In this document: positions 830 to 23,924 of the stretch, one piece after another | How the letters are laid out: every line of letters begins with the position of its first letter | Position numbering within the stretch: the first letter of the stretch is position 1 | Assembly: GCA_000830275.1 (NCBI GenBank) | Contig: CP010424.1 | Location: 720,001 to 752,000, forward strand | Reading direction: 5' to 3' | DNA length: 32,000 bases | Source: an archaeon GW2011_AR10 | Lineage (GTDB): Archaea; Iainarchaeota; Iainarchaeia; Iainarchaeales; GW2011-AR10 | Program-made: the position numbers and the translations under genes | Notes under the pieces: generated by a model | Told to the model about the DNA's origin: nothing | The model's database searches: none | The model's input: only the letters and a program-made list of their open reading frames with translations

Positions 830-925
830 ATACCTCTTTTGCGTTACTTTAACTGATTTTAACGTGCTTGCTATCTAAAATCGAAGTGGAATCCTAAATA
901 TAAAAAGAGTGTTTTTGTTTTGGCA

Positions 926-2083
926 ATGAAAAAATTTTATTTTTTAGTTCTGCTTGTTTTTCTCTTTAATGGATGTAGCCAGCCGAGTGATTCAGCTTAC
1001 TCTGAAAATGTTGAATTAAGCTTGGACCAAATAAAGGAATTAACCGAGGAAAGCCCTGACACAAATGTTTCGGTTACTTTTTTCGGCGAGAACTCAATTC
1101 AGCGGAACATAGAAAAAATAAAAACCTCCTGCAAAAAAGATTTTCCAATTCAGCCTTACTATTTGATTGAAATACAAAAGACTGCTGGAAACATTGTTCT
1201 CTGGCTTAGCGTGGACTCACAACAAGTCGTTTGCTCAGTAAGAAAAGGAATCAAAGTTGATTCGTGCTTTAGCGAGCTTGACTGCGATGATGGTTTGGTC
1301 TCAACAATTGATAAGTGCGAAGGCACTCCAAGAACTTGCTCGCATGGAAGAATAACTGAATGCAGGGGCGGAGACAATTTTTGCCCCAGCAACTGTACAG
1401 CAGATTTGGATGGGGACTGTGTAAGGCAATGCACTTCTAACGATGATTGCAGTGACGAAAACATTTTAACGGAGGACATTTGTTATGGGTTAATAAAGGT
1501 CTGCACTTTCAAGCCTCTTGACAAAAAAGAGGCTGGAATTTGTGAAGAATTAGCAGACTGCGAAGATGACAACCCATGCACAATTGATTCCTGCACTGAC
1601 TCAAAATGCTCCCATGACCCCCTAATCAATGGCACTTTTTGTGATGATAGAAAAGAATGCTTCGATGGAGCCTGTGTCTCGGTTACAGAAAATGAAATGG
1701 TTGTAAAAAATATTGAGGCAGAACAATCTGGAGAGCGTGAAGTCAAAATTACTTGGACAACAAACAAGCAAGGAGACTCTACTGTTAAGTACGGTGTTTG
1801 GCCCAATGCCTCTTACGACAATATTGAGGAAATTAAAGAATATGTGGTAGACCATGAAGTTTTGTTGCAAAACATTTCAGTGGGAAAAAAGTATGTTTTT
1901 AAGGTTCGTTCCGCGGATAGGTTTGGCCAAACAGCTTCTGAGGTTGGCGGTGATAGGGAAACCTTTACTCTTTGCTTGGAAGAGTGCGATGACGGAAACA
2001 GTTGCACAATTGACTCCTGCAATATAAGCTTAGGTGCCTGCGAAAGCAAAACAGACACGTCAATTGAGGGCTGCACACAGTAA
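926..2083 (+). CDS. Secreted Cys-rich lipoprotein with CxDxNxCTxDxC modules and an FN3-like domain
   Basis: The ATG at 926 gives MKKFYFLVLLVFLFNGC, a signal peptide plus an LFNGC lipobox. Modules such as CEDDNPCTIDSCTDSKC and CDDGNSCTIDSCNISLGAC repeat and resemble the Dictyostelium CTDC-type repeat. The central VKITWTTNKQGDSTVKYG...YVFKVRSADRFGQ block resembles an FN3 / purple-acid-phosphatase N-terminal domain. A TATA-like box (taaatataaaaag) lies about 25 nt upstream. Confidence 0.75.
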   Translation: MKKFYFLVLLVFLFNGCSQPSDSAYSENVELSLDQIKELTEESPDTNVSVTFFGENSIQRNIEKIKTSCKKDFPIQPYYLIEIQKTAGNIVLWLSVDSQQVVCSVRKGIKVDSCFSELDCDDGLVSTIDKCEGTPRTCSHGRITECRGGDNFCPSNCTADLDGDCVRQCTSNDDCSDENILTEDICYGLIKVCTFKPLDKKEAGICEELADCEDDNPCTIDSCTDSKCSHDPLINGTFCDDRKECFDGACVSVTENEMVVKNIEAEQSGEREVKITWTTNKQGDSTVKYGVWPNASYDNIEEIKEYVVDHEVLLQNISVGKKYVFKVRSADRFGQTASEVGGDRETFTLCLEECDDGNSCTIDSCNISLGACESKTDTSIEGCTQ

Positions 2084-2183
2084 AAAGGCTTAATCATGTT
2101 TTAGGGTTAAAATCTGCCTTTTACCGAAATTTTAGCCGAAAACATTAAATAGAAGTAAGAAAGTATTAGAATATTGGAATTAG

Positions 2184-5100
2184 GTGTCATCCAACAAAAT
2201 ATTTTTGGTTTTTTTGCTAATTTTGATTGTTGCTCCAGCCGCTAATGCCGGAGTCATAGATGATATGATTTCTGGTTTTTTTAACCTGTTTCTCCAGTCG
2301 TGTTCTTCTTCCCAGCAATGGTATTGTTACACTGAAACAGAATGCACAGGCGCAGGAGGCTACTGGTGCAATAGTTACTGTCAATCATCACCTTGCAGCA
2401 GTTCCGGTGGCAGTGGCTCTTATGGATATTGCGGCAATGGAACATGTGAAAGCGGAGAAACAACCGGAAGCTGCCCATCAGATTGTGGAAGCTATACTGG
2501 AGGAGGCTCCTCTAGTTACTGCGGAAATGGAACCTGCGAAAGCAGCGAAACATACTCCTCCTGCCCATATGACTGCGGAAGCGGAGCGCCAAGCAGTAGC
2601 GGAACCACGGTTTGCGGGAACGGAACCTGCGAATCAGGAGAAAGCACTGGAAGTTGTCCTGCTGACTGTGGAAGTTACACAGGCGGAGGCGGAGCAGGTT
2701 CTTCTTGCACAGCTGACCAGCCGTGGAATTGCTATAGCGAATCAGAATGTGTAACCGCAAGCGGAAAATGGTGTGGAAAATATTGTTCCAGTTCTTGTCC
2801 AACATGCGAAACAGGAAAAGTTTGGAACTGCTATACGCAAACTGAATGCACTTCCGCTGGCGGAAAATGGTGCAATGAATATTGTTCTGAATACGAGTGC
2901 CCGACATGCTCAGCTGCTCAGCCCTGGAATTGCAATACAGAGTCAACCTGCACTGGAGCAGGAGCAAACTGGTGCAACAACTACTGTCAGTCAGGCTCCT
3001 GCCCAACCTGTGAAACAGGAAACGTATGGAACTGCTACACTGAAAGCGCCTGCACTGGAGTAGGCGGCCAGTGGTGCGGCAACTGGTGCAGTGATAAAGC
3101 CTGCCCATCATGCTCCAAAGAACAACCATGGAATTGCTATAATGAATCCAACTGCACTACAGCAGGGGGAAACTGGTGCAACAACTATTGCTCGAATTAT
3201 GAGTGCCCAAAGTGTGATTCCAGCCAGCCCTGGAACTGCAGCAATGAGACTGACTGTGCGGCAGCCGGCGGCTACTATTGTTCTTCATCAGGAGGTGCTT
3301 CATGGTGTTCCAACTCAAAGTGCCCGGTTTGCGAAGCCGCCCAGCCATGGAATTGCTATACTCAAGGAGAATGCTCCAATGCTGGTAGCCAGTGGTGTGA
3401 GTCTGAAGGAGGCAAAGGGTATTGCTCACAGGAGTGCCCGATTTGTTCCAAGGAAAAGCCGTGGAATTGCTATAATGAAACCCAAGCCAACAATGTTGGG
3501 CTCCAATGGTGTGGCACTTTTGCTGCTGAAACCTGCCCAAAGTGCGAACCAAACAATTACTGGAATTGCTTTGACCAAACAAGTTGCACTGGTGTAGGCG
3601 GAAATTGGTGCACTTCTGACTATGGCTCTAGTTGGTGTTCCAGCAGCTGCCCAACATGCTCAGCTGAACAACCATGGAATTGCTATAATGAATCCAACTG
3701 CACTACAGCAGGAGGAAACTGGTGTGGAAGCTGGTGTAATTCCGGAGAATGCCCAACGTGTTCTCCTGAACAGCCCTGGAATTGTTCAACTGAAGAAAGT
3801 TGTAATGCAGCAGGAAAGAAATGGTGCACTTCTTCGGGCGACGCTGGTTTTGCTTCAACGCCAAGTGGCGGTTGGTGTACTGATAGCTGCCCTACTTGTA
3901 GTGAAGACCAGCCGTGGAATTGTTATTCTGAGACAACTTGTGTTTCATCTGGAGGGGAATGGTGCAATGGGTGGTGCAGTAATTCTTGCCCTGTGTGCTC
4001 TAAGACTGAACCATGGAACTGTACAACCCAATCAGAATGCGTAGCTGCAAGCGGAGAGTGGTGCGGAAACTGGTGCTCTGACAACTGCCCAACGTGTTCA
4101 GCTGAACAACCATGGAATTGTTATGATGAAGCCTCCTGTGCTAAAGCAGAAGCAAAATGGTGCTCAGACAAATTTGCTTCTTGGTGCTCTGACAACTGCC
4201 CAACGTGTTCTACAGATCAGCCTTGGAGTTGTTACAGTGAGGCAGACTGCACTGAAGTTGGAGCAAACTGGTGTGAAAGCTGGTGCAGTGTAAAGGAATG
4301 CCCAACCTGTGATAATGCCCAACCGTGGAATTGCCAAACAGAAACTGCCTGTGAAGAAGTAAATGGAAACTGGTGTATTCCGGTTGGTGGAGGGTATGGC
4401 TACTGCTCAGATGCAGAATGTGCGTCATGCAAGGAGACAAGCCCCTGGAATTGTTATAATGAAGCAGATTGTAAGGGAGTTGAAGCAGAGTGGTGCGACA
4501 CATATTGCTCTGACCAAAAATGCCCAACCTGTTCCGCTGAACAACCATGGAATTGCTATAGCCAAACAGGATGCAGTTCCGCTGAAGGAAACTGGTGTGT
4601 GTCTCCAAGTGGCGGTGCAGGATGGTGCTCCGAATATGAATGTCCAAGCTGCTCCAAAGACCAACCATGGAACTGCTATAAAAAAGAAAATTGTATTGCT
4701 GCAGAAGGGGAGTGGTGTGATTCAGGGTATGGCGCTTATTGCACCAATAAATGCCAGACTTGCTCCGAGGACGAGCCTTGGAATTGCTTTGACAAGGATA
4801 AGTGTTTGGCAACAGGCGGAGAGTGGTGCGGAACCTATTGCTCTGATTCCTGCCCTATATGTTCACCTGAGAGGCCCTGGGACTGCTATACTCAAGCAGG
4901 GTGCGAGGAAGCCAGCGGAAACTGGTGCAATGGCTACTGTTCTAATTACGAGTGCCCAAAGTGTGATTCTAGCCAGCCCTGGAACTGCAGCAATGAAACC
5001 TCTTGCAAGGATTCTGGCGGCCAGTGGTGCGGTGAAAAGGGACAAGGTGGTGCAGTATATGCTTCCTATGGCTGGTGCAGCAATGATTGCCCAACGTGTT

Positions 5101-6674
5101 CTTCTAAGACGCCTTGGAATTGTTATTCACAGAATGACTGCCAGAAGGTAGGGTCTAACTGGTGTGGAACCTATTGCTCTGACCAGAAATGCCCAACGTG
5201 TTCTCCTGAACAGCCATGGAATTGCTCCAGCAAAGCAGAATGCACTGAAGCAGCAGGAAACTGGTGTGAGCCAACATGGAAAGGCGGATATGGCTGGTGC
5301 TCTGATTACAGCTGCCCAGTGTATAATGCAGGTTACTGTGGGGATTCAGTCTGTGACTTTGCTGTGGGAGAGGACTCGTTTTCCTGTTTCGAGGATTGTG
5401 GGGAGGGACAACTTAGAGATTATGGTTGTAGAGAAATTGTAGATCCTGTTACCGGTTTCACTGAATTTGAGTGTGAAACAGAAACCTATGAGTGTTTTGG
5501 GGAACCACCAGAAGTGAAGGAAACGTGCTTGGCTTATGGCGGAACGCCAGTTTCTGAAAAGGATCCGTTCGGTTGTGACATTACTTTCTGTAAGTTTGAT
5601 GGTGTAGCTGACAAGGATCAGGTGTTTTTTGGAGGGGAATGTCTGCCAGGAGAAAAAGCAAAGGAGGTACTAAGGGCCTGTGAGAAAAATGGTTTGACGG
5701 GCATATTGGATGTTGGACTTAATGGCTGTTTTTTCCCAAGATGTGAGGGCAAACAGAATAATTACGAGGATGTTTGCGAAACTTATTCAACAGACGAGAT
5801 AAGCGAATTGGAAAATGCTTGTAAGGCACAGGGCGGAACCCTTGTTCCAAAATTTGATGATAATGGTTGTAAAACTCCAAGTTGTGAATCCGGAGATGTT
5901 TGCATTGAAATAGAAAATAATGCTGTGGAAAAATGTGCTGCATTTGGGGGTTCAATGGTTGTTGAGAAGGATGATGCAGGCTGCGTTGTTTATGCTAACT
6001 GCATTAAGAGAGGTGAAACGTCAATAGAATCAGAAGAAGTAAACGAAGTCCCTGAGCAAGAGAAATTAATTGAATTATCTGATAGATTGGATGAATTAAG
6101 CTTGGATATTGGTAATTTAGTTACAAGGAGCGAAGAATTGGCTGCCTTTTATGAAGAGAAAAATGATGAAGCCAGCCAAACAAAGTTTGAAACCCTGGTT
6201 GCAATGCTTGAGGCCGCTAATACAAAGATTGGCATGATACAGAAAGAATTAGAAGAAAATATCTATTCTATTACAACAGACGACTTGGAGAACTTAAAAA
6301 TAGAGGTCAAATACGTTAGAGATGTATTGCTTCAGGATGCAATGTTTTTGCTTTTTAGTGAACCACTTGGAGATGAAGTGGTTGATTGCGGAACGAATGA
6401 CTCTTGCTTTATGCAGGCATTCAGAATTTGCCAAAAAGCCACTATAAGCCATGTTGAAGCCGGCACAACTTTTGAAGGGGAGATTTTGGGCCTACAAAAT
6501 GAGAGGTGTGTTTTTGAAATTAGAATAGAACTGGAAGGCCAGCAGTTGGAAATGACCTGCAGGGATCCAAACTATGCGCTTGGAGACCTTGGTGATGGCG
6601 AGTTTTTGAACTATTGTGAGGGCTCACTTCTTGAAAGAATTTCAGAGTTTACTTCTCCGGAGGAAGTTGAATGA
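2184..6674 (+). CDS. Giant (1,496 aa) secreted cysteine/tryptophan-rich tandem-repeat protein, unrecognised family
   Basis: A GTG start directly follows an in-frame TAG. The signal peptide is MSSNKIFLVFLLILIVAPAANA|GV. Domain order: 3 CGNGTCESGE..CPxDCGS modules, about 24 six-Cys modules, 4 C-x15-C-x4/5-C modules, a coiled coil (EKLIELSDRLDELSLDIGNL...), then a Cys-containing C-terminal domain. The 4.5-kb frame is uninterrupted. Confidence 0.85.
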   Translation: MSSNKIFLVFLLILIVAPAANAGVIDDMISGFFNLFLQSCSSSQQWYCYTETECTGAGGYWCNSYCQSSPCSSSGGSGSYGYCGNGTCESGETTGSCPSDCGSYTGGGSSSYCGNGTCESSETYSSCPYDCGSGAPSSSGTTVCGNGTCESGESTGSCPADCGSYTGGGGAGSSCTADQPWNCYSESECVTASGKWCGKYCSSSCPTCETGKVWNCYTQTECTSAGGKWCNEYCSEYECPTCSAAQPWNCNTESTCTGAGANWCNNYCQSGSCPTCETGNVWNCYTESACTGVGGQWCGNWCSDKACPSCSKEQPWNCYNESNCTTAGGNWCNNYCSNYECPKCDSSQPWNCSNETDCAAAGGYYCSSSGGASWCSNSKCPVCEAAQPWNCYTQGECSNAGSQWCESEGGKGYCSQECPICSKEKPWNCYNETQANNVGLQWCGTFAAETCPKCEPNNYWNCFDQTSCTGVGGNWCTSDYGSSWCSSSCPTCSAEQPWNCYNESNCTTAGGNWCGSWCNSGECPTCSPEQPWNCSTEESCNAAGKKWCTSSGDAGFASTPSGGWCTDSCPTCSEDQPWNCYSETTCVSSGGEWCNGWCSNSCPVCSKTEPWNCTTQSECVAASGEWCGNWCSDNCPTCSAEQPWNCYDEASCAKAEAKWCSDKFASWCSDNCPTCSTDQPWSCYSEADCTEVGANWCESWCSVKECPTCDNAQPWNCQTETACEEVNGNWCIPVGGGYGYCSDAECASCKETSPWNCYNEADCKGVEAEWCDTYCSDQKCPTCSAEQPWNCYSQTGCSSAEGNWCVSPSGGAGWCSEYECPSCSKDQPWNCYKKENCIAAEGEWCDSGYGAYCTNKCQTCSEDEPWNCFDKDKCLATGGEWCGTYCSDSCPICSPERPWDCYTQAGCEEASGNWCNGYCSNYECPKCDSSQPWNCSNETSCKDSGGQWCGEKGQGGAVYASYGWCSNDCPTCSSKTPWNCYSQNDCQKVGSNWCGTYCSDQKCPTCSPEQPWNCSSKAECTEAAGNWCEPTWKGGYGWCSDYSCPVYNAGYCGDSVCDFAVGEDSFSCFEDCGEGQLRDYGCREIVDPVTGFTEFECETETYECFGEPPEVKETCLAYGGTPVSEKDPFGCDITFCKFDGVADKDQVFFGGECLPGEKAKEVLRACEKNGLTGILDVGLNGCFFPRCEGKQNNYEDVCETYSTDEISELENACKAQGGTLVPKFDDNGCKTPSCESGDVCIEIENNAVEKCAAFGGSMVVEKDDAGCVVYANCIKRGETSIESEEVNEVPEQEKLIELSDRLDELSLDIGNLVTRSEELAAFYEEKNDEASQTKFETLVAMLEAANTKIGMIQKELEENIYSITTDDLENLKIEVKYVRDVLLQDAMFLLFSEPLGDEVVDCGTNDSCFMQAFRICQKATISHVEAGTTFEGEILGLQNERCVFEIRIELEGQQLEMTCRDPNYALGDLGDGEFLNYCEGSLLERISEFTSPEEVE
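2427..2675 (+). repeat. Three tandem coding modules YCGNGTCESGE(T/S)xxSCPxDCGS
   Basis: Read from the translation: YCGNGTCESGETTGSCPSDCGS, YCGNGTCESSETYSSCPYDCGS, VCGNGTCESGESTGSCPADCGS. Gly/Ser linkers separate the modules. Confidence 0.85.
2706..5312 (+). repeat. About 24 tandem coding repeats (31-45 aa each): C-P-x-C-x3-(P/V/Y)-W-N-C-x5-C-x3-G-G-x-W-C-x(2-15)-(W/Y)-C
   Basis: I counted 24 consecutive units by hand, e.g. CPTCSAEQPWNCYNESNCTTAGGNWCGSWCNSGE. A degenerate zeroth unit lies at about 2301-2396. Each unit has six Cys at conserved spacing. Length variation is confined to the loop before the last Cys. Confidence 0.9.
5526..6002 (+). repeat. Four coding modules with C-x15-C-x4/5-C spacing
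   Basis: CLAYGGTPVSEKDPFGCDITFC, CEKNGLTGILDVGLNGCFFPRC, CKAQGGTLVPKFDDNGCKTPSC, CAAFGGSMVVEKDDAGCVVYANC. The Cys spacing is identical in the first three, and a GG...D..GC core is shared. Confidence 0.8.
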
Positions 6675-6967
6675 ACTTAAAAAAAATTAATTTTAAATTG
6701 GACAAGAACAATAAAGCAATCTGGGTTGCCCTGACATTAGTCGCGGTAATTGGCATTGGAATCCTAATCCTTCAAGGGTATGAGCCCGAGTACAAGCCCT
6801 TAAAACCGGACCTAGATTTTTCTGATGACCTTTTGTCAATTATTGAGAGCGAATTAGGTGTCAAAAGTACAGGTGCTCAAGGTGAAAGCGTAGTTTCAAT
6901 GGGAAGTGAAATTGAGGGAGTGGTTGGAGCTTTGAGCGATGTTGACAGGGATTTAAGCGGCGGTTAG
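6671..6967 (+). CDS. Small single-pass membrane protein (98 aa), translationally coupled to the giant repeat protein
   Basis: Its ATG overlaps the upstream TGA (ATGA at 6671-6674). The TM segment is AIWVALTLVAVIGIGILILQG, and the C-terminal tail is acidic. Confidence 0.6.
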   Translation: MNLKKINFKLDKNNKAIWVALTLVAVIGIGILILQGYEPEYKPLKPDLDFSDDLLSIIESELGVKSTGAQGESVVSMGSEIEGVVGALSDVDRDLSGG

Positions 6968-7012
6968 GTAGCAGTTTAAATAGCTCCCTTGCATTAATTT
7001 CACTGATTGAGC

Positions 7013-7903
7013 ATGGAATTGCAGGAACTGAATGAAGCAGGACTGCATTTAGCGCAGAGTTTTTCATCCCCGGCACTTGACTTGGTTTTCTCTGCATTAA
7101 CTGTTTTAGGTAACCCGGTTTTCTGGGTTTTTGTTGCAGCGCTGGTGTTCTGGAAAGGAGAGGAAAAAGAGTCCTTTTTCCTCATGAACATGGTTGTTTT
7201 TGCAACAGCGCTTGTAGGGGTGCTTAAGAGTTTTTTTGCTGTTCCTAGGCCGTCTCCAGAAAATTTCAGAGTGGTTGAAAACCTAGTTACAGTTAGCTAT
7301 GGCGGAAACAATTACCCTGACTTCGCTTTTCCAAGCGGCCACACTACAACTGTAACCGCGGCAGCTGTTTACCTCCAAAAATTCGAGAAAAAGTGGCTGA
7401 AAGAAATTTTTCTGGCAATAGTGGTTGCAGTGGCTTTTTCAAGGATGTACTTGGGCCAGCACTTTCCGCTGGATGTTGCAGGAGGCCTTGTTTTGGGGGT
7501 TCTCGTGGGCAACAGCAATCTACTCATACAAAAAAGGTTCGAAAAATCGCGTTTCAGGCTAACAAAATTAAGGGAGGAACTGGCATTGTTTGGAATAATA
7601 GTGGCTTCTGTTGCTGCAATTGCCTTGTTTGAGGCCCCAATAGTAAGTTTGCTGGTTTTGGGTTACTATGCAGGGTTTTTGGCCTTCAAAATCCTTGGAT
7701 TTGACTCAACAAGGCTTCAAGGCAGCGAACTGCTCAAAAAAGAGGCTCTTGGAAGCGCTGGGTTTTTGCTTCTGGTCGGGCCTGCACTCATTTTGGGGGA
7801 AGCCTTAACCCAGCTCTTGCTGTTCCTTTTCGCTGGCCTCTGGATAAGCCTTATTTTCCCGGCAGTTTACGAGAAGGTTTTAAAGAAAACGCCTTCAAAG
7901 TAG
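7013..7903 (+). CDS. PAP2-family (type 2 phosphatidic acid / polyprenyl-diphosphate) phosphatase with extra C-terminal TM helices
   Basis: All three PAP2 motifs are present: KSFFAVPRP (KxxxxxxRP), FPSGHTTT (PSGH) and SRMYLGQHFPLDV (SRxxxxxHxxxD). I prefer the ATG at 7013 over the TTG at 7007. A TATA-like box (gtttaaatag) lies about 30 nt upstream. Confidence 0.85.
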   Translation: MELQELNEAGLHLAQSFSSPALDLVFSALTVLGNPVFWVFVAALVFWKGEEKESFFLMNMVVFATALVGVLKSFFAVPRPSPENFRVVENLVTVSYGGNNYPDFAFPSGHTTTVTAAAVYLQKFEKKWLKEIFLAIVVAVAFSRMYLGQHFPLDVAGGLVLGVLVGNSNLLIQKRFEKSRFRLTKLREELALFGIIVASVAAIALFEAPIVSLLVLGYYAGFLAFKILGFDSTRLQGSELLKKEALGSAGFLLLVGPALILGEALTQLLLFLFAGLWISLIFPAVYEKVLKKTPSK

Positions 7904-9046: not shown

Positions 9047-10330
9047 TTACCTGAAATTCAAAAATAATCTGAAAAAGAAAAACCAAACATGGTCAATTAA
9101 ATTATTTGGAAAGTACTGTATTCCATCATTCTTTAGCTGGTTCACTGCTTCCTTTGCTGGGTCGGAAGAATTCTTAATTGTGTCTAAAACTGTTGCACTT
9201 GTTCTAAAAGTTCCTTTTGCAGAAGGGCCCAACACTCCCTCCTTATAATTTGTAATTTGTCCATTTTGGAGATCAAAAGTGTAAACAGTTGTGCTGCCAT
9301 TATAGTTTTGAATTTCTGCGTTGTATGTTCCATCGCCGAAGCCAAAAAACACAAAATTGCCGAACGGGTTTTGGCCGGTTCCGCATTCAACATACATTTC
9401 CCTGAAAAGGTTTCCAATTGGGGTGCTACAATCCATGTTCACATTGCATGCAGGGCAAATCTGGCAATTATTAAAAGAGGTTCCGCACGCAAGGCCGGTT
9501 TGTGGCGGGCCATTGCAGTAAAACCCTGCTTTGCTGCCGTTAACAGTCGTTGTTACTGTTGCATCAGGGTGAAAGTATTTGCATATGTCAGTAGCATACC
9601 CAGTGTAACCAACACATTTTTTTCCAACGCTTGCGCAGACTTCATTCCCAGTGTCGAGAGATGAATCCGTTGAAGTGACAACATAATATGTTTTGCCATT
9701 GTAAGGGTAAGAGCCCTTGCCGCCAGCATTGTTAACTGGCTGTGCAGGCTGGCCGCCAGCAGGAGGCGAACCAGAAACAACAAAATAGACTCCATTTCTT
9801 GACTCGATTTGGTTTGAATTCAGCCCGGCACACACTGCAAGTTCTGCCGGAGTACTGCTTCTGCACGGGGCATTTGCAACACAATTTGTTGCCTGCCACT
9901 TGTTGCAGCGCGGATCGGATGAATCAACAACACATTTTTGGTAAGCAAAAGCGCTTGCACAGCTTATCTGGTTCAGTTCACAGTCATTGTAAGGGCAACC
10001 ACCGCTTACCGCTCCACCAACTGCGTCTGGACCGCGAACATAAGAAGGAGTGTTACTGCATCGAATTGAATTTGCTGGGCCGTTGTAATTTTTTAGCGTG
10101 CAAATTACTTTTCCAGGAGTTGCAGGCGTATTAGTTATGCAGGTAGTTGGAACCGCCGGGTTGTTTGCAACTGGCCCAGGGCCTGCAAGCTGGCAAAAAG
10201 TTTCTGCCGCCCCCACTGCTGAACAGTTTACGTTTGCCCGGTAATCAAATTCGCACTCGTAATCTGTGGCAAAAACAAGCCCCGCAGCTAAAACAACAAA
10301 AAGAAAAAACACAAAAAATTTTGCAGACAT
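9047..10330 (-). CDS. Secreted Cys-rich protein (427 aa, 24 Cys), unknown family
   Basis: I prefer the internal ATG at 10330, which gives the signal peptide MSAKFFVFFLFVVLAAGLVFA|TDYEC. A TATA-like box (cttttaaatc) lies about 25-30 nt upstream. A Pro/Gly/Gln linker (SGSPPAGGQPAQPVNNAGG) separates two Cys-rich halves, and the C-terminal roughly 110 aa are Cys-free. Confidence 0.7.
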   Translation of the reverse strand: MSAKFFVFFLFVVLAAGLVFATDYECEFDYRANVNCSAVGAAETFCQLAGPGPVANNPAVPTTCITNTPATPGKVICTLKNYNGPANSIRCSNTPSYVRGPDAVGGAVSGGCPYNDCELNQISCASAFAYQKCVVDSSDPRCNKWQATNCVANAPCRSSTPAELAVCAGLNSNQIESRNGVYFVVSGSPPAGGQPAQPVNNAGGKGSYPYNGKTYYVVTSTDSSLDTGNEVCASVGKKCVGYTGYATDICKYFHPDATVTTTVNGSKAGFYCNGPPQTGLACGTSFNNCQICPACNVNMDCSTPIGNLFREMYVECGTGQNPFGNFVFFGFGDGTYNAEIQNYNGSTTVYTFDLQNGQITNYKEGVLGPSAKGTFRTSATVLDTIKNSSDPAKEAVNQLKNDGIQYFPNNLIDHVWFFFFRLFLNFR

Positions 10331-10499
10331 CAGATAATTAATCAAAGAAAATGATTTAAAAGAGTTGCGGAAAAAGAAAAGACCGGTAGGAGAAGCCCTA
10401 TTTGCCGCACGAGGAATATTCAAAGGACCTGCACCGGAAACCTACTCTGCATCTCTTTTGTTTTAAAAAGCACTGCTTCTTTTTATTTTGGTGAAAAGA

Positions 10500-22754: not shown

Positions 22755-22808
22755 TTATAAAGGAATTAAAACACTTGATTGTTTGGTAAACCCTGTTTTG
22801 GTGCTGCA

Positions 22809-23924
22809 ATGGATGAAACAACAAGGAAAATTTTGCTTGCAGTAGTGGTTGTTGCAGTTATTGGAGCAATTGTTTTTCTGGAAAACCCTTTTCAGCAGAA
22901 TGAAACTGTGCTGCCTGAAGTGGAAGATGGCTCAGAAAATGCAGCGGAAGAAAGCAGCTACCCTGTCGCACCGGAAATAATCGGAATCCACAGCTGGATT
23001 AATTCCCAAGAACTTAAGCTTGCTGACTTGCGTGGAAAAGTTGTGTTGGTTGATTTCTGGACTTACTCCTGCGTTAACTGCCTTAGGACATTGCCGCACC
23101 TCAGGGAATGGAATGAAAAGTACTCTGGCCTAGGTTTTGTGTTAATCGGGGTGCACAGCCCTGAATTCAATTTTGAGAAGGAGCTGGCAAATGTACAGCA
23201 GGCAGTGAATGATAACGGCATAGAGTACGCTGTTGCATTGGATAATGACATGAAAACATGGCGCAATTACAAGAATAGGTTCTGGCCCGCAAAGTATTTG
23301 ATTGATGCAAACGGAAGAATTCGTTACACTCATTTCGGAGAGGGTGCCTACGCTGAAACAGAAAAGCAGATTCAGCTGCTGCTTGAGGAAGCTCGCGCCG
23401 AGGAAATTGACATTGAAATTGTGGAAGAGGAAGAAAGTGGCGGTGGAGCAGGAATTTTCAGGACACCGGAGCTTTACGCAGGATATGCCTTCGGCTCTTA
23501 CCTTGGAAACAGTGAAGGATACGCGCAGGATGCCGCAAAGAGTTTCACTGCACCTGCGGAACTTGCAGACGGAAAAATTTACCTTAACGGCGAATGGTTC
23601 AATTCATCAGAGCATGTGAGGCATGCAAGGAAAACACAAAACCTTGAGGACTTCATTGCAATAAAGTATCTTGCATCAGAAGTTAATGCAGTGCTGCAGG
23701 CAGGCCCTGAACCCTACAAGGTTTATGTAATGCTTGACGGAAAAGACCTGAAGGAAAGGTATGCTGGAAGCGACATAATGTGGGATGATGATGGAAATGC
23801 ATTTGTTGTGGTTGACAAGGACAGGCTCTATAACATAATCGACGGGCCTCTTGGAATCAGGGAGTTAAGGCTGAGCTCTGACTCTGATGAGTTCACTTTG
23901 TACACTTTCACTTTCGGCGGCTGA
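22809..23924 (+). CDS. Membrane-anchored thioredoxin-fold protein (redoxin, DipZ C-terminal-like) with an extra C-terminal beta-rich domain
   Basis: The ATG at 22809 gives the signal anchor ILLAVVVVAVIGAIVFL. DFWTYSCVNCLRTLPHL contains the CxxC active site. GVHSPEFNFEK...FWPAKYLIDANGRIRYTHFGEGAYAETE follows the DipZ C-terminal/redoxin pattern. Confidence 0.8.
   Translation: MDETTRKILLAVVVVAVIGAIVFLENPFQQNETVLPEVEDGSENAAEESSYPVAPEIIGIHSWINSQELKLADLRGKVVLVDFWTYSCVNCLRTLPHLREWNEKYSGLGFVLIGVHSPEFNFEKELANVQQAVNDNGIEYAVALDNDMKTWRNYKNRFWPAKYLIDANGRIRYTHFGEGAYAETEKQIQLLLEEARAEEIDIEIVEEEESGGGAGIFRTPELYAGYAFGSYLGNSEGYAQDAAKSFTAPAELADGKIYLNGEWFNSSEHVRHARKTQNLEDFIAIKYLASEVNAVLQAGPEPYKVYVMLDGKDLKERYAGSDIMWDDDGNAFVVVDKDRLYNIIDGPLGIRELRLSSDSDEFTLYTFTFGG

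Follow-up and report, generated by a model that had tools for sequence, protein, structure and literature searches.

What does the genome of the archaeon GW2011_AR10 encode at a locus where public gene calls see only short open reading frames (ORFs) and a C-terminal fragment? The locus lies at positions 2184 to 6674 of a 32,000-nt stretch of contig CP010424.1 (assembly GCA_000830275.1, positions 720,001 to 752,000, forward strand), the whole of which we call the window. A first-pass annotation, made from the letters alone, had described there a secreted protein of 1,496 amino acids (aa) built from about 24 tandem copies of a six-cysteine, Trp-bearing module that it could not assign to any family. 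It had also taken the DNA to be archaeal, and the source is indeed an archaeon, a member of the Diapherotrites. We lean, somewhat, towards reading the product as a secreted surface protein, a length-variable and disulfide-stapled rod that would serve as a spacer and be docked to the cell through its C-terminus.

Layout of the protein

The gene has a GTG start, a TGA stop and no interruption, and its 1,496-aa product contains 188 Cys (12.6%), 62 Trp and a single His, in line with the intact frame and the Cys total of well over 150 claimed earlier. Its parts are listed below in window coordinates, with the evidence in brackets.

2184..6674 (+): complete gene for the secreted Cys-repeat protein (ORF list, same frame in the independent assembly L011, variability at codon position 3, full-length homologues in DPANN archaea)
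2184..2249 (+): Sec-type signal peptide, aa 1-22, MSSNKIFLVFLLILIVAPAANA|G, predicted cleavage after ANA (sequence features)
2301..2396 (+): six-Cys unit 1, aa 40-71, apart from the main array (match to a hidden Markov model, HMM, of the unit; re-phased parse)
2430..2672 (+): three four-Cys repeats of the form CGNGxCExxExxxxCPxDCG, aa 83-102, 113-132 and 144-163 (regular expression)
2706..5315 (+): 24 contiguous six-Cys units, aa 175-1044 (HMM, parse, AlphaFold, joint loss of Cys)
3444..3536 (+): degenerate unit, aa 421-451, lacking exactly C3 and C5 (unit parse)
5337..5402 (+): fourth CGNG-type repeat, aa 1052-1073, just past the array (regular expression and coordinates)
5493..6002 (+): four four-Cys helix-plus-hairpin modules of ~35-45 aa each, aa 1104-1273 (alignment, AlphaFold pLDDT ~70-84)
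6057..6356 (+): three long helices, aa 1292-1391, a predicted helical bundle (AlphaFold pLDDT ~86-95)
6378..6650 (+): C-terminal Cys-containing alpha/beta domain, aa 1399-1489 (conserved Cys and Gly columns, AlphaFold pLDDT ~84-93)

The order of n, h and c regions at the N-terminus is typical of a Sec signal peptide. The array had been placed directly after it; the signal peptide stands, but unit 1 and three CGNG repeats intervene. The two flanking Cys module types and the coiled coil that had been reported can be recognised in the CGNG repeats (which also occur in homologues and in more distant matches), the four four-Cys modules and the three-helix region. The array of 24 units is 870 residues long and has 142 Cys but no His; it contains hardly any aliphatic residues and is acidic. 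The protein ends in an acidic tail, with no transmembrane segment and no membrane anchor of its own, and its N-glycosylation sequons are not enriched (12 observed, 13 expected).

Reading frame and assemblies

In public gene calls, short +1-frame ORFs take the place of the array, and the only part of the protein retained is a 451-aa C-terminal fragment that starts at Val1046. The GenBank products are AJF60277.1 (140 aa, in the wrong frame), AJF60279.1 (the 451-aa fragment) and AJF60280.1 (a small partner protein, described below); the wrong-frame ORFs lie within window 2773-5151, +1 relative to the gene, for example at 3622-4044. These split calls, in GenBank and in metagenomes alike, together with two assemblies that break inside the array, are what speaks for the view that no such protein exists, and that the locus is either a repeat-assembly artefact or is correctly deposited as short +1 ORFs plus a 451-aa protein. 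We give this view almost no credence. Unit-to-unit variability in the Cys frame peaks at the third codon position (1.30 bits, versus 0.85 and 0.73 at the other two), and by this measure the Cys frame is the true frame. Moreover, T occupies codon position 2 in 3% of its codons, versus 30% in housekeeping genes elsewhere in the window; this scarcity probably leads gene finders to reject the frame and would account for the split calls. Full-length DPANN homologues with the same Cys/Trp skeleton and a unit fold predicted at a pLDDT of 95 (see below) argue the same way. The +1-frame "hypothetical proteins" in GW2011_AR10 and in metagenome calls appear to be artefacts. Because the gene calls are split, the full 1,496-aa protein is absent from the protein collection that we searched; nor is it among the GenBank products found for the region.

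Five further assemblies (L011 to L015) span most or all of the gene, and all are in frame, free of stops and, apart from indels of +31, -37 and -182 aa, more than 99% identical. The independent assembly L011 has an open frame of the same 1,496 codons in length (1492/1496 identical), and L015 is identical in register. L012, L013 and L014 share a 31-aa insertion at aa 82, which is one additional CGNG repeat; L013 differs by that repeat alone, L014 is in addition short of a single complete unit (37 aa, flanked by 29-nt repeats), and L012 lacks 182 aa (five units, between 47-nt repeats). The two missing segments map as follows.

3120..3665 (+): five-unit segment, aa 313-494, missing from L012 and flanked by the only 47-nt exact repeat
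4071..4181 (+): one-unit segment (37 aa), missing from L014 and flanked by a 29-nt repeat

An assembly artefact, a frameshift or a stop had been named from the start as what might undo the claim. The longest exact internal repeat is 47 nt, the independent L011 frame has the same length and every assembly variant stays in frame without a stop, so the ORF is real. The median DNA identity between units is ~59%, and owing to this divergence Tandem Repeats Finder detects almost nothing in the array. At the same time, the array is a real assembler hazard, because in two assemblies the contig ends exactly at a unit junction: L009 (position 1 = window 5188) and L010 (position 1 = window 5088), two independent metagenome-assembled genomes of the same organism with sequence identical to the window, stop at a TGCCCAACGTG (Cys-Pro-Thr-Cys) junction. 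The conserved junction k-mer breaks short-read assemblies.

Phase of the repeat and probable pairing of its cysteines

The motif recognised earlier, C-[PAQ]-x-C...W-[NSD]-C, was counted 23 times from aa 205 to aa 1003, with two further units lacking the first Cys, whereas the unit HMM finds 25 copies in the protein at a mean of 46 bits each. Re-phased, the unit reads C-x7-C-x5-C-x7-C-x(3-15)-C-x(3-4)-C. This parse gives 25 units, all with six Cys except that at aa 421-451 (two Cys lost), takes in both the isolated first unit (aa 40-71) and the last unit (aa 1006-1044), and leaves a unit-unit linker of exactly two residues, usually Pro-x. On this parse "CPxC" is not a motif but the junction of two units, where the final Cys of one and the opening Cys of its successor stand on either side of the two-residue linker. 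The tandem six-Cys, Trp-bearing module proposed earlier thus stands, but with 25 copies (one plus 24 contiguous) in place of 24 and with its phase shifted by one Cys. Two details of the proposed skeleton did not survive: the spacing after CPxC is x4-P-W-N-C, not x3, and the loop before the last Cys is not the only variable one, since the C5-C6 spacer also varies between three and four residues.

We then considered which Cys are lost together, using 609 tandem units parsed from 142 proteins. All six Cys are present in 225 units (and in 19 more with a longer linker), C4 and C6 are both absent from 233 (and from 69 more with a longer linker), and almost none holds just one of the two. This joint loss argues for a C4-C6 disulfide; C3-C5 is suggested by the degenerate window unit at aa 421-451, from which these two Cys have gone together, and C1-C2 is the pair that remains by elimination. 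We therefore infer the disulfide map C1-C2, C3-C5, C4-C6. Of the two Cys of a CPxC, the first goes with C4 of its own unit while the second stays, and a reading of CPxC as a thioredoxin-like or zinc-knuckle motif was rejected because its two Cys are lost independently.

The same observations bear on an alternative in which the Cys would be mostly free thiolates that bind metal (Zn, Fe or Cu) or act as an extracellular sulfide or redox buffer, a role of the kind debated for Giardia CxxC-rich surface proteins. The sheer number of Cys (142 per 870 residues), the 23 CPxC spacings, the anoxic habitat and the lack of a dedicated disulfide oxidase among the genes seen in the window all fit this alternative. 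We nevertheless judge it improbable, since the two Cys of a CPxC have independent fates, losses of Cys come in twos and not in fours, the array lacks His or other ligands and has a spacing unlike that of zinc knuckles, and a confident compact fold is predicted without metal.

Predicted fold of the unit

An AlphaFold2 model of three units (aa 242-341), built on an alignment of 58 three-unit segments, reached a mean pLDDT of 95.3 and a pTM of 0.62, so that the individual beads are predicted confidently and their mutual orientation less so. In the predicted unit, a one-turn helix at PWN and a short helix bearing C3 accompany a hairpin, the strands of which finish with xWC and [YW]C. The pLDDT, and the pairwise loss of Cys within a unit, support the earlier proposal that each unit is an autonomous disulfide minidomain.

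Which known family could this be? A scan of the whole protein against Pfam-A and NCBIfam gave no match for the repeat at E<=1, and the same two collections returned nothing for the repeat or for the C-terminal region when the protein, its close homologues and the distant matches were all scanned. Profiles of one unit and of three units had no match among PDB sequences at E<=10. Foldseek with the unit model gave nothing against BFVD and a lone, non-significant match against the PDB, the Sema-PSI region of MET (4k3j_B, E=7.9, TM-score 0.20). The earlier claim that the unit belongs to no named family stands: Pfam, NCBIfam, PDB sequences and Foldseek are all without a significant match. The suggestion of a loosely hevein/CBM18-like segment fares worse, with no Pfam match and with a Cys count and a deduced pairing that differ from those of hevein. 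We found no description of this Cys-repeat family in the literature that we searched.

The aromatic residues of the unit raise a further alternative, in which the units would be lectin-like binding modules and the array a multivalent adhesin for glycans on a host archaeon or on particles. It draws on the aromatics that stand next to Cys (Trp precedes the C4 position in 94% of six-Cys units and 75% of units of the four-Cys form, which lacks C4 and C6; Trp or Tyr precedes C5), on the GG turn, on the predicted secretion of the protein, on the copy-number variation typical of adhesins, and on the literature on other DPANN, which proposes a role in host contact for their large surface proteins. We consider it unlikely. 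Conservation in both forms is limited to the GG turn and the Trp that precedes the C4 position; the Trp of "PWN" occurs in 49% of six-Cys units and 18% of four-Cys units, and in the latter Leu is the commonest residue at the two positions flanking its site (48% and 33%). This poor conservation and the predominance of Leu suggest that the site serves core packing rather than ligand binding. Moreover, no hevein/CBM18 or other carbohydrate-binding family was matched, N-glycosylation sequons are not enriched, and in the relative P0045 the units adjoin a separate galactose-binding domain that would supply the binding, an arrangement that fits a spacer role for the units. According to the literature AR10 is a complete Diapherotrites genome and among the metabolically fuller DPANN; obligate attachment to a host is therefore not a given, and the organism may need none.

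The C-terminal region and a small membrane protein encoded downstream

The last ~410 residues are conserved at 25-32% identity in 17 homologues from a first search (phmmer E 1e-25 to 1e-67) and are found in 27 proteins overall. Their alignment has 28 invariant columns, 23 of which are Cys. The region accompanies the six-Cys form of the unit, being present in 24 of 62 proteins that have it versus 1 of 81 four-Cys-only proteins. AlphaFold (pLDDT 76.7) predicts the four helix-plus-hairpin Cys modules, the three long helices and the alpha/beta end domain listed above, and Foldseek against the PDB and PDB profiles gave no more than generic helical or coiled-coil matches for the region.

The gene is followed immediately by another.

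6671..6967 (+): 98-aa small membrane protein, GenBank AJF60280.1 (sequence; conserved position in 7/7 loci)

The ATG of this gene overlaps the stop of the large gene (ATGA), with GGAGG 7 nt upstream, and its product has an N-terminal transmembrane helix and a conserved C-terminal amphipathic segment. At all seven loci examined, the window and six others, an ORF of 65-103 aa lies directly downstream on the same strand, each with an N-terminal transmembrane helix and a weakly conserved amphipathic segment at the C-terminus. The family that we define here is made up of proteins with the C-terminal region, a downstream gene for a transmembrane protein and a DPANN host, and the window protein has all three.

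Two further observations concern this end of the protein. The four-Cys module that is present in four copies follows the pattern C-x10-14-C-x3-GG-x10-GC-x4-C, and extra copies of it stand beside Kazal domains in P0037, P0042 and P0043. Three homologues, P0007, P0010 and P0013 (loci L007 and L008), extend past the conserved end with a Cys pair, ~10-12 hydrophobic residues and a basic terminus (…PISGLFGLIASWGK, …PLSGLVSFFNLFGRK). This tail, which the window protein lacks, might be a C-terminal sorting or anchoring signal.

Distribution and relatives

We scanned 1.84 billion representative proteins with a three-unit profile (HMMER) and obtained 134 matches at E<=1e-3, 49 at E<=1e-10 and 14 at E<=1e-30, which makes the module a rare one. 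The strong matches are long, unannotated proteins, and those with a named source are from DPANN: Diapherotrites, Aenigmarchaeota, Woesearchaeota and Nanoarchaeota. The homologue loci hold archaeal marker genes such as TFIIB, RNA polymerase subunit N, GGR and PcrB. By HMM count, the DPANN homologues have 2-19 six-Cys units, so that the 25 units of the window protein are the largest array found (the runner-up has 19 by HMM or 16 by a strict six-Cys regular expression). To judge from these matches, the module is shared with other DPANN proteins and is not peculiar to the window protein. A search for related loci with a single protein gave only one Woesearchaeota contig, which was among those already known, and viral contigs yielded nothing.

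The weaker matches have the simpler form without C4 and C6, which also occurs outside this family. Four-Cys arrays (C-x7-C-x5-C-..GGYWY..-C, often with 'NLxLC') are seen in P0041, P0044, P0100, P0102, P0119 and P0122. P0041 (locus L004) has gene neighbours of a bacterial type, namely FtsX, FtsE and a D-Ala-D-Ala carboxypeptidase, and a Pfam scan of P0041 and P0044 assigned them to no family.

The N-terminal parts of homologues are mixtures of six-Cys units, CGNG repeats, GCxCGG...YSGYCC repeats, Kazal domains and Ig-like domains; in P0017, P0018, P0037 and P0042, Kazal is a domain of its own. That Kazal domains precede the same C-terminal region in some family members, and that tandem small disulfide-rich domains are a common inhibitor design, would fit an array that works as a multi-headed protease inhibitor or as a toxin-like effector against enzymes of a host or competitor. 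Such a function seems to us very improbable here: no Kazal or other inhibitor family was detected in the window protein, variability within the unit is greatest in a single loop that differs in length, not in a canonical reactive-site loop, and 25 near-equivalent heads would be unusual.

A proposed model: a length-variable surface rod

How could these parts work together? In the reading that we prefer, for which we infer Cys oxidation, rod geometry, docking, orientation and contact at the outer end, tiny domains, each a short helix on a beta-hairpin with three putative disulfides, would be joined head to tail. Such a chain of beads would form a protease-resistant, semi-rigid rod of, by our estimate, some tens of nanometres, and would act mainly as a spacer of adjustable length, with 2 to 25 copies of the unit among homologues. 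Changes of whole units between near-identical strains would arise by recombination between units. The conserved C-terminal region of ~410 aa would be the constant working end, attached to the cell by way of the small membrane protein from the downstream gene, and the variable N-terminal part would point outwards.

Several points weigh against this spacer model. AR10 comes from an aquifer community described as anaerobic, and no DsbA/DsbB/VKOR-type oxidase was seen in the window, where a single exported thioredoxin-like protein is the only one of its kind; disulfide formation is, on both counts, assumed. The small downstream proteins are only 13-28% identical to the window copy and have in common their architecture and a weak C-terminal motif. 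A pure spacer role leaves the strong conservation of the unit surface between copies unexplained. Finally, the copy-number variants could in part be products of assembly, as two assemblies break at a unit junction.

A bolder extension, which we regard as possible though doubtful, would make the large protein and its 98-aa neighbour a DPANN-specific two-component apparatus not recognised before, in which the small protein is a membrane-anchored adaptor that holds a disulfide-beaded rod, recombination of units within populations tunes the length of that rod, and the outer end is swapped between lineages. This apparatus would be the main structure by which these cells keep their distance from, or grip, partner cells or minerals, and it would be much commoner than the 134 matches indicate, being systematically missing from protein databases because gene finders reject its codon composition.

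Whichever reading holds, the locus is of interest in four respects. The unit is a domain family outside Pfam, NCBIfam and the PDB, with a confidently predicted fold and a testable disulfide map, and a second module, likewise unassigned, and the C-terminal region come alongside it. As a conserved two-gene cassette in several lineages, it is a candidate surface structure of DPANN, in which envelope building and cell contact are little understood. It exposes an annotation blind spot, since a published complete genome splits the gene into wrong-frame ORFs, so that the array cannot be found by protein searches or by proteomics against those calls; similar genes may hide elsewhere. Moreover, strains that are almost identical differ by whole units with no change of frame, which points to a surface protein that is still diversifying.

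Flanking sequence and neighbouring genes

Upstream of the gene lies a 100-nt intergenic region with one further feature.

2144..2151 (+): AT-rich ATTAAATA element, 33-40 nt 5' of the GTG (read directly from the sequence)

By its sequence and position this element is a possible archaeal TATA box. Just before it, at window 2119-2141, an imperfect short direct repeat (TTTTACCGAAA) occurs twice.

The neighbourhood seems to be enriched in secreted Cys-rich proteins. The upstream gene (window 920-2083, +) encodes an exported Cys-rich protein of 387 aa with a lipoprotein-like N-terminus (…LFNGC), a borderline match to a Dictyostelium-type Cys repeat and sub-threshold matches to fn3 and purple-acid-phosphatase-N; it is not kept beside the homologues elsewhere. 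A third exported Cys-rich protein (window 9047-10423, -) has 458 aa, an N-terminal hydrophobic segment and no Pfam family. The two-gene cassette is followed by a PAP2-family membrane phosphatase (window 7007-7903, +), which does not stand beside the homologues in other lineages.

Further away, at window 22779-23924 (+), a gene encodes a membrane-anchored thioredoxin fold (AhpC/TSA-Redoxin plus Thioredoxin_10) with a WTYSCVNC motif. Its product is a candidate extracytoplasmic thiol-disulfide oxidoreductase and could serve disulfide-rich exported proteins. A Redoxin gene is also found near the homologue P0010 (L007), and a DsbD_2 gene adjoins P0045 (L005).

Comparison with known systems

The unit was compared with several small Cys-rich domains. 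Hevein/CBM18 has eight Cys with a CCS...GxCG...YC core, whereas the window units have six, no CC pair and another spacing. PSI domains are likewise small Cys-rich modules with a Trp by a Cys, but they have eight Cys in another pattern, there is no Pfam PSI match, and the Foldseek match noted above has E=7.9 and a TM-score of 0.20. Neither the Kazal_1 nor the Kazal_2 profile is matched by the window protein. Zinc-ribbon and metallothionein repeats use ligands in sets of four (paired CxxC knuckles) or Cys clusters with metal; the pairwise loss of Cys, the lack of His and the export of the protein make such a repeat less likely here.

Among surface proteins of low-oxygen habitats, the variant-specific surface proteins (VSPs) of Giardia and the immobilisation antigens of ciliates are comparable in their Cys content (~11-13%) and their wealth of CxxC spacings; such proteins probably make up a tough coat, and they differ from one lineage to another. 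The window protein differs from the Giardia VSPs in that there is no Pfam VSP match, CPxC is an inter-domain junction and a C-terminal transmembrane anchor is absent, and we saw no evidence for it of a switching gene family of their kind. SlaA and SlaB of Sulfolobales resemble the two-gene cassette in that a large secreted protein stands beside a smaller, membrane-anchored partner, but here the partner has 65-103 aa and is anchored N-terminally, and no similarity in sequence or fold was detected. The giant surface proteins of DPANN of the SPEARE type, which according to the literature are thought to mediate cell contact, are built of Ig-like domains with an ATPase domain, and no similarity of the window protein to them was detected.

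Rods of tandem Cys-rich minidomains belong to a kind already known, and so do the large surface proteins of DPANN. The resources and literature that we searched hold no description of the module with its fold, the conserved C-terminal region, the gene for the partner, the indels of whole units between strains or the mis-annotation. EGF arrays, such as those of fibrillin and Notch, are also tandem six-Cys minidomains with very short linkers that form stiff stalks and vary in copy number between paralogues. EGF disulfides run 1-3, 2-4, 5-6, unlike the 1-2, 3-5, 4-6 pairing deduced here, and there is no Pfam EGF match; no calcium-binding motif was noted by eye in the units. Another parallel in design is with the cysteine-rich domains of TNF receptors (TNFR) and with furin-like and laminin-type rods, in which six-Cys units of ~30-40 aa also follow one another head to tail in an elongated extracellular rod. 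The TNFR domains (A1+B2 modules) even have the 1-2, 3-5, 4-6 connectivity suggested for the window units, but Pfam gives no match to TNFR_c6 or a related family, PDB sequences give none either, Foldseek against the PDB returns no TNFR chain, and the Cys spacing, the helix-plus-hairpin build and the archaeal source differ. The resemblance to TNFR and EGF rods is one of convergent design, not of membership.

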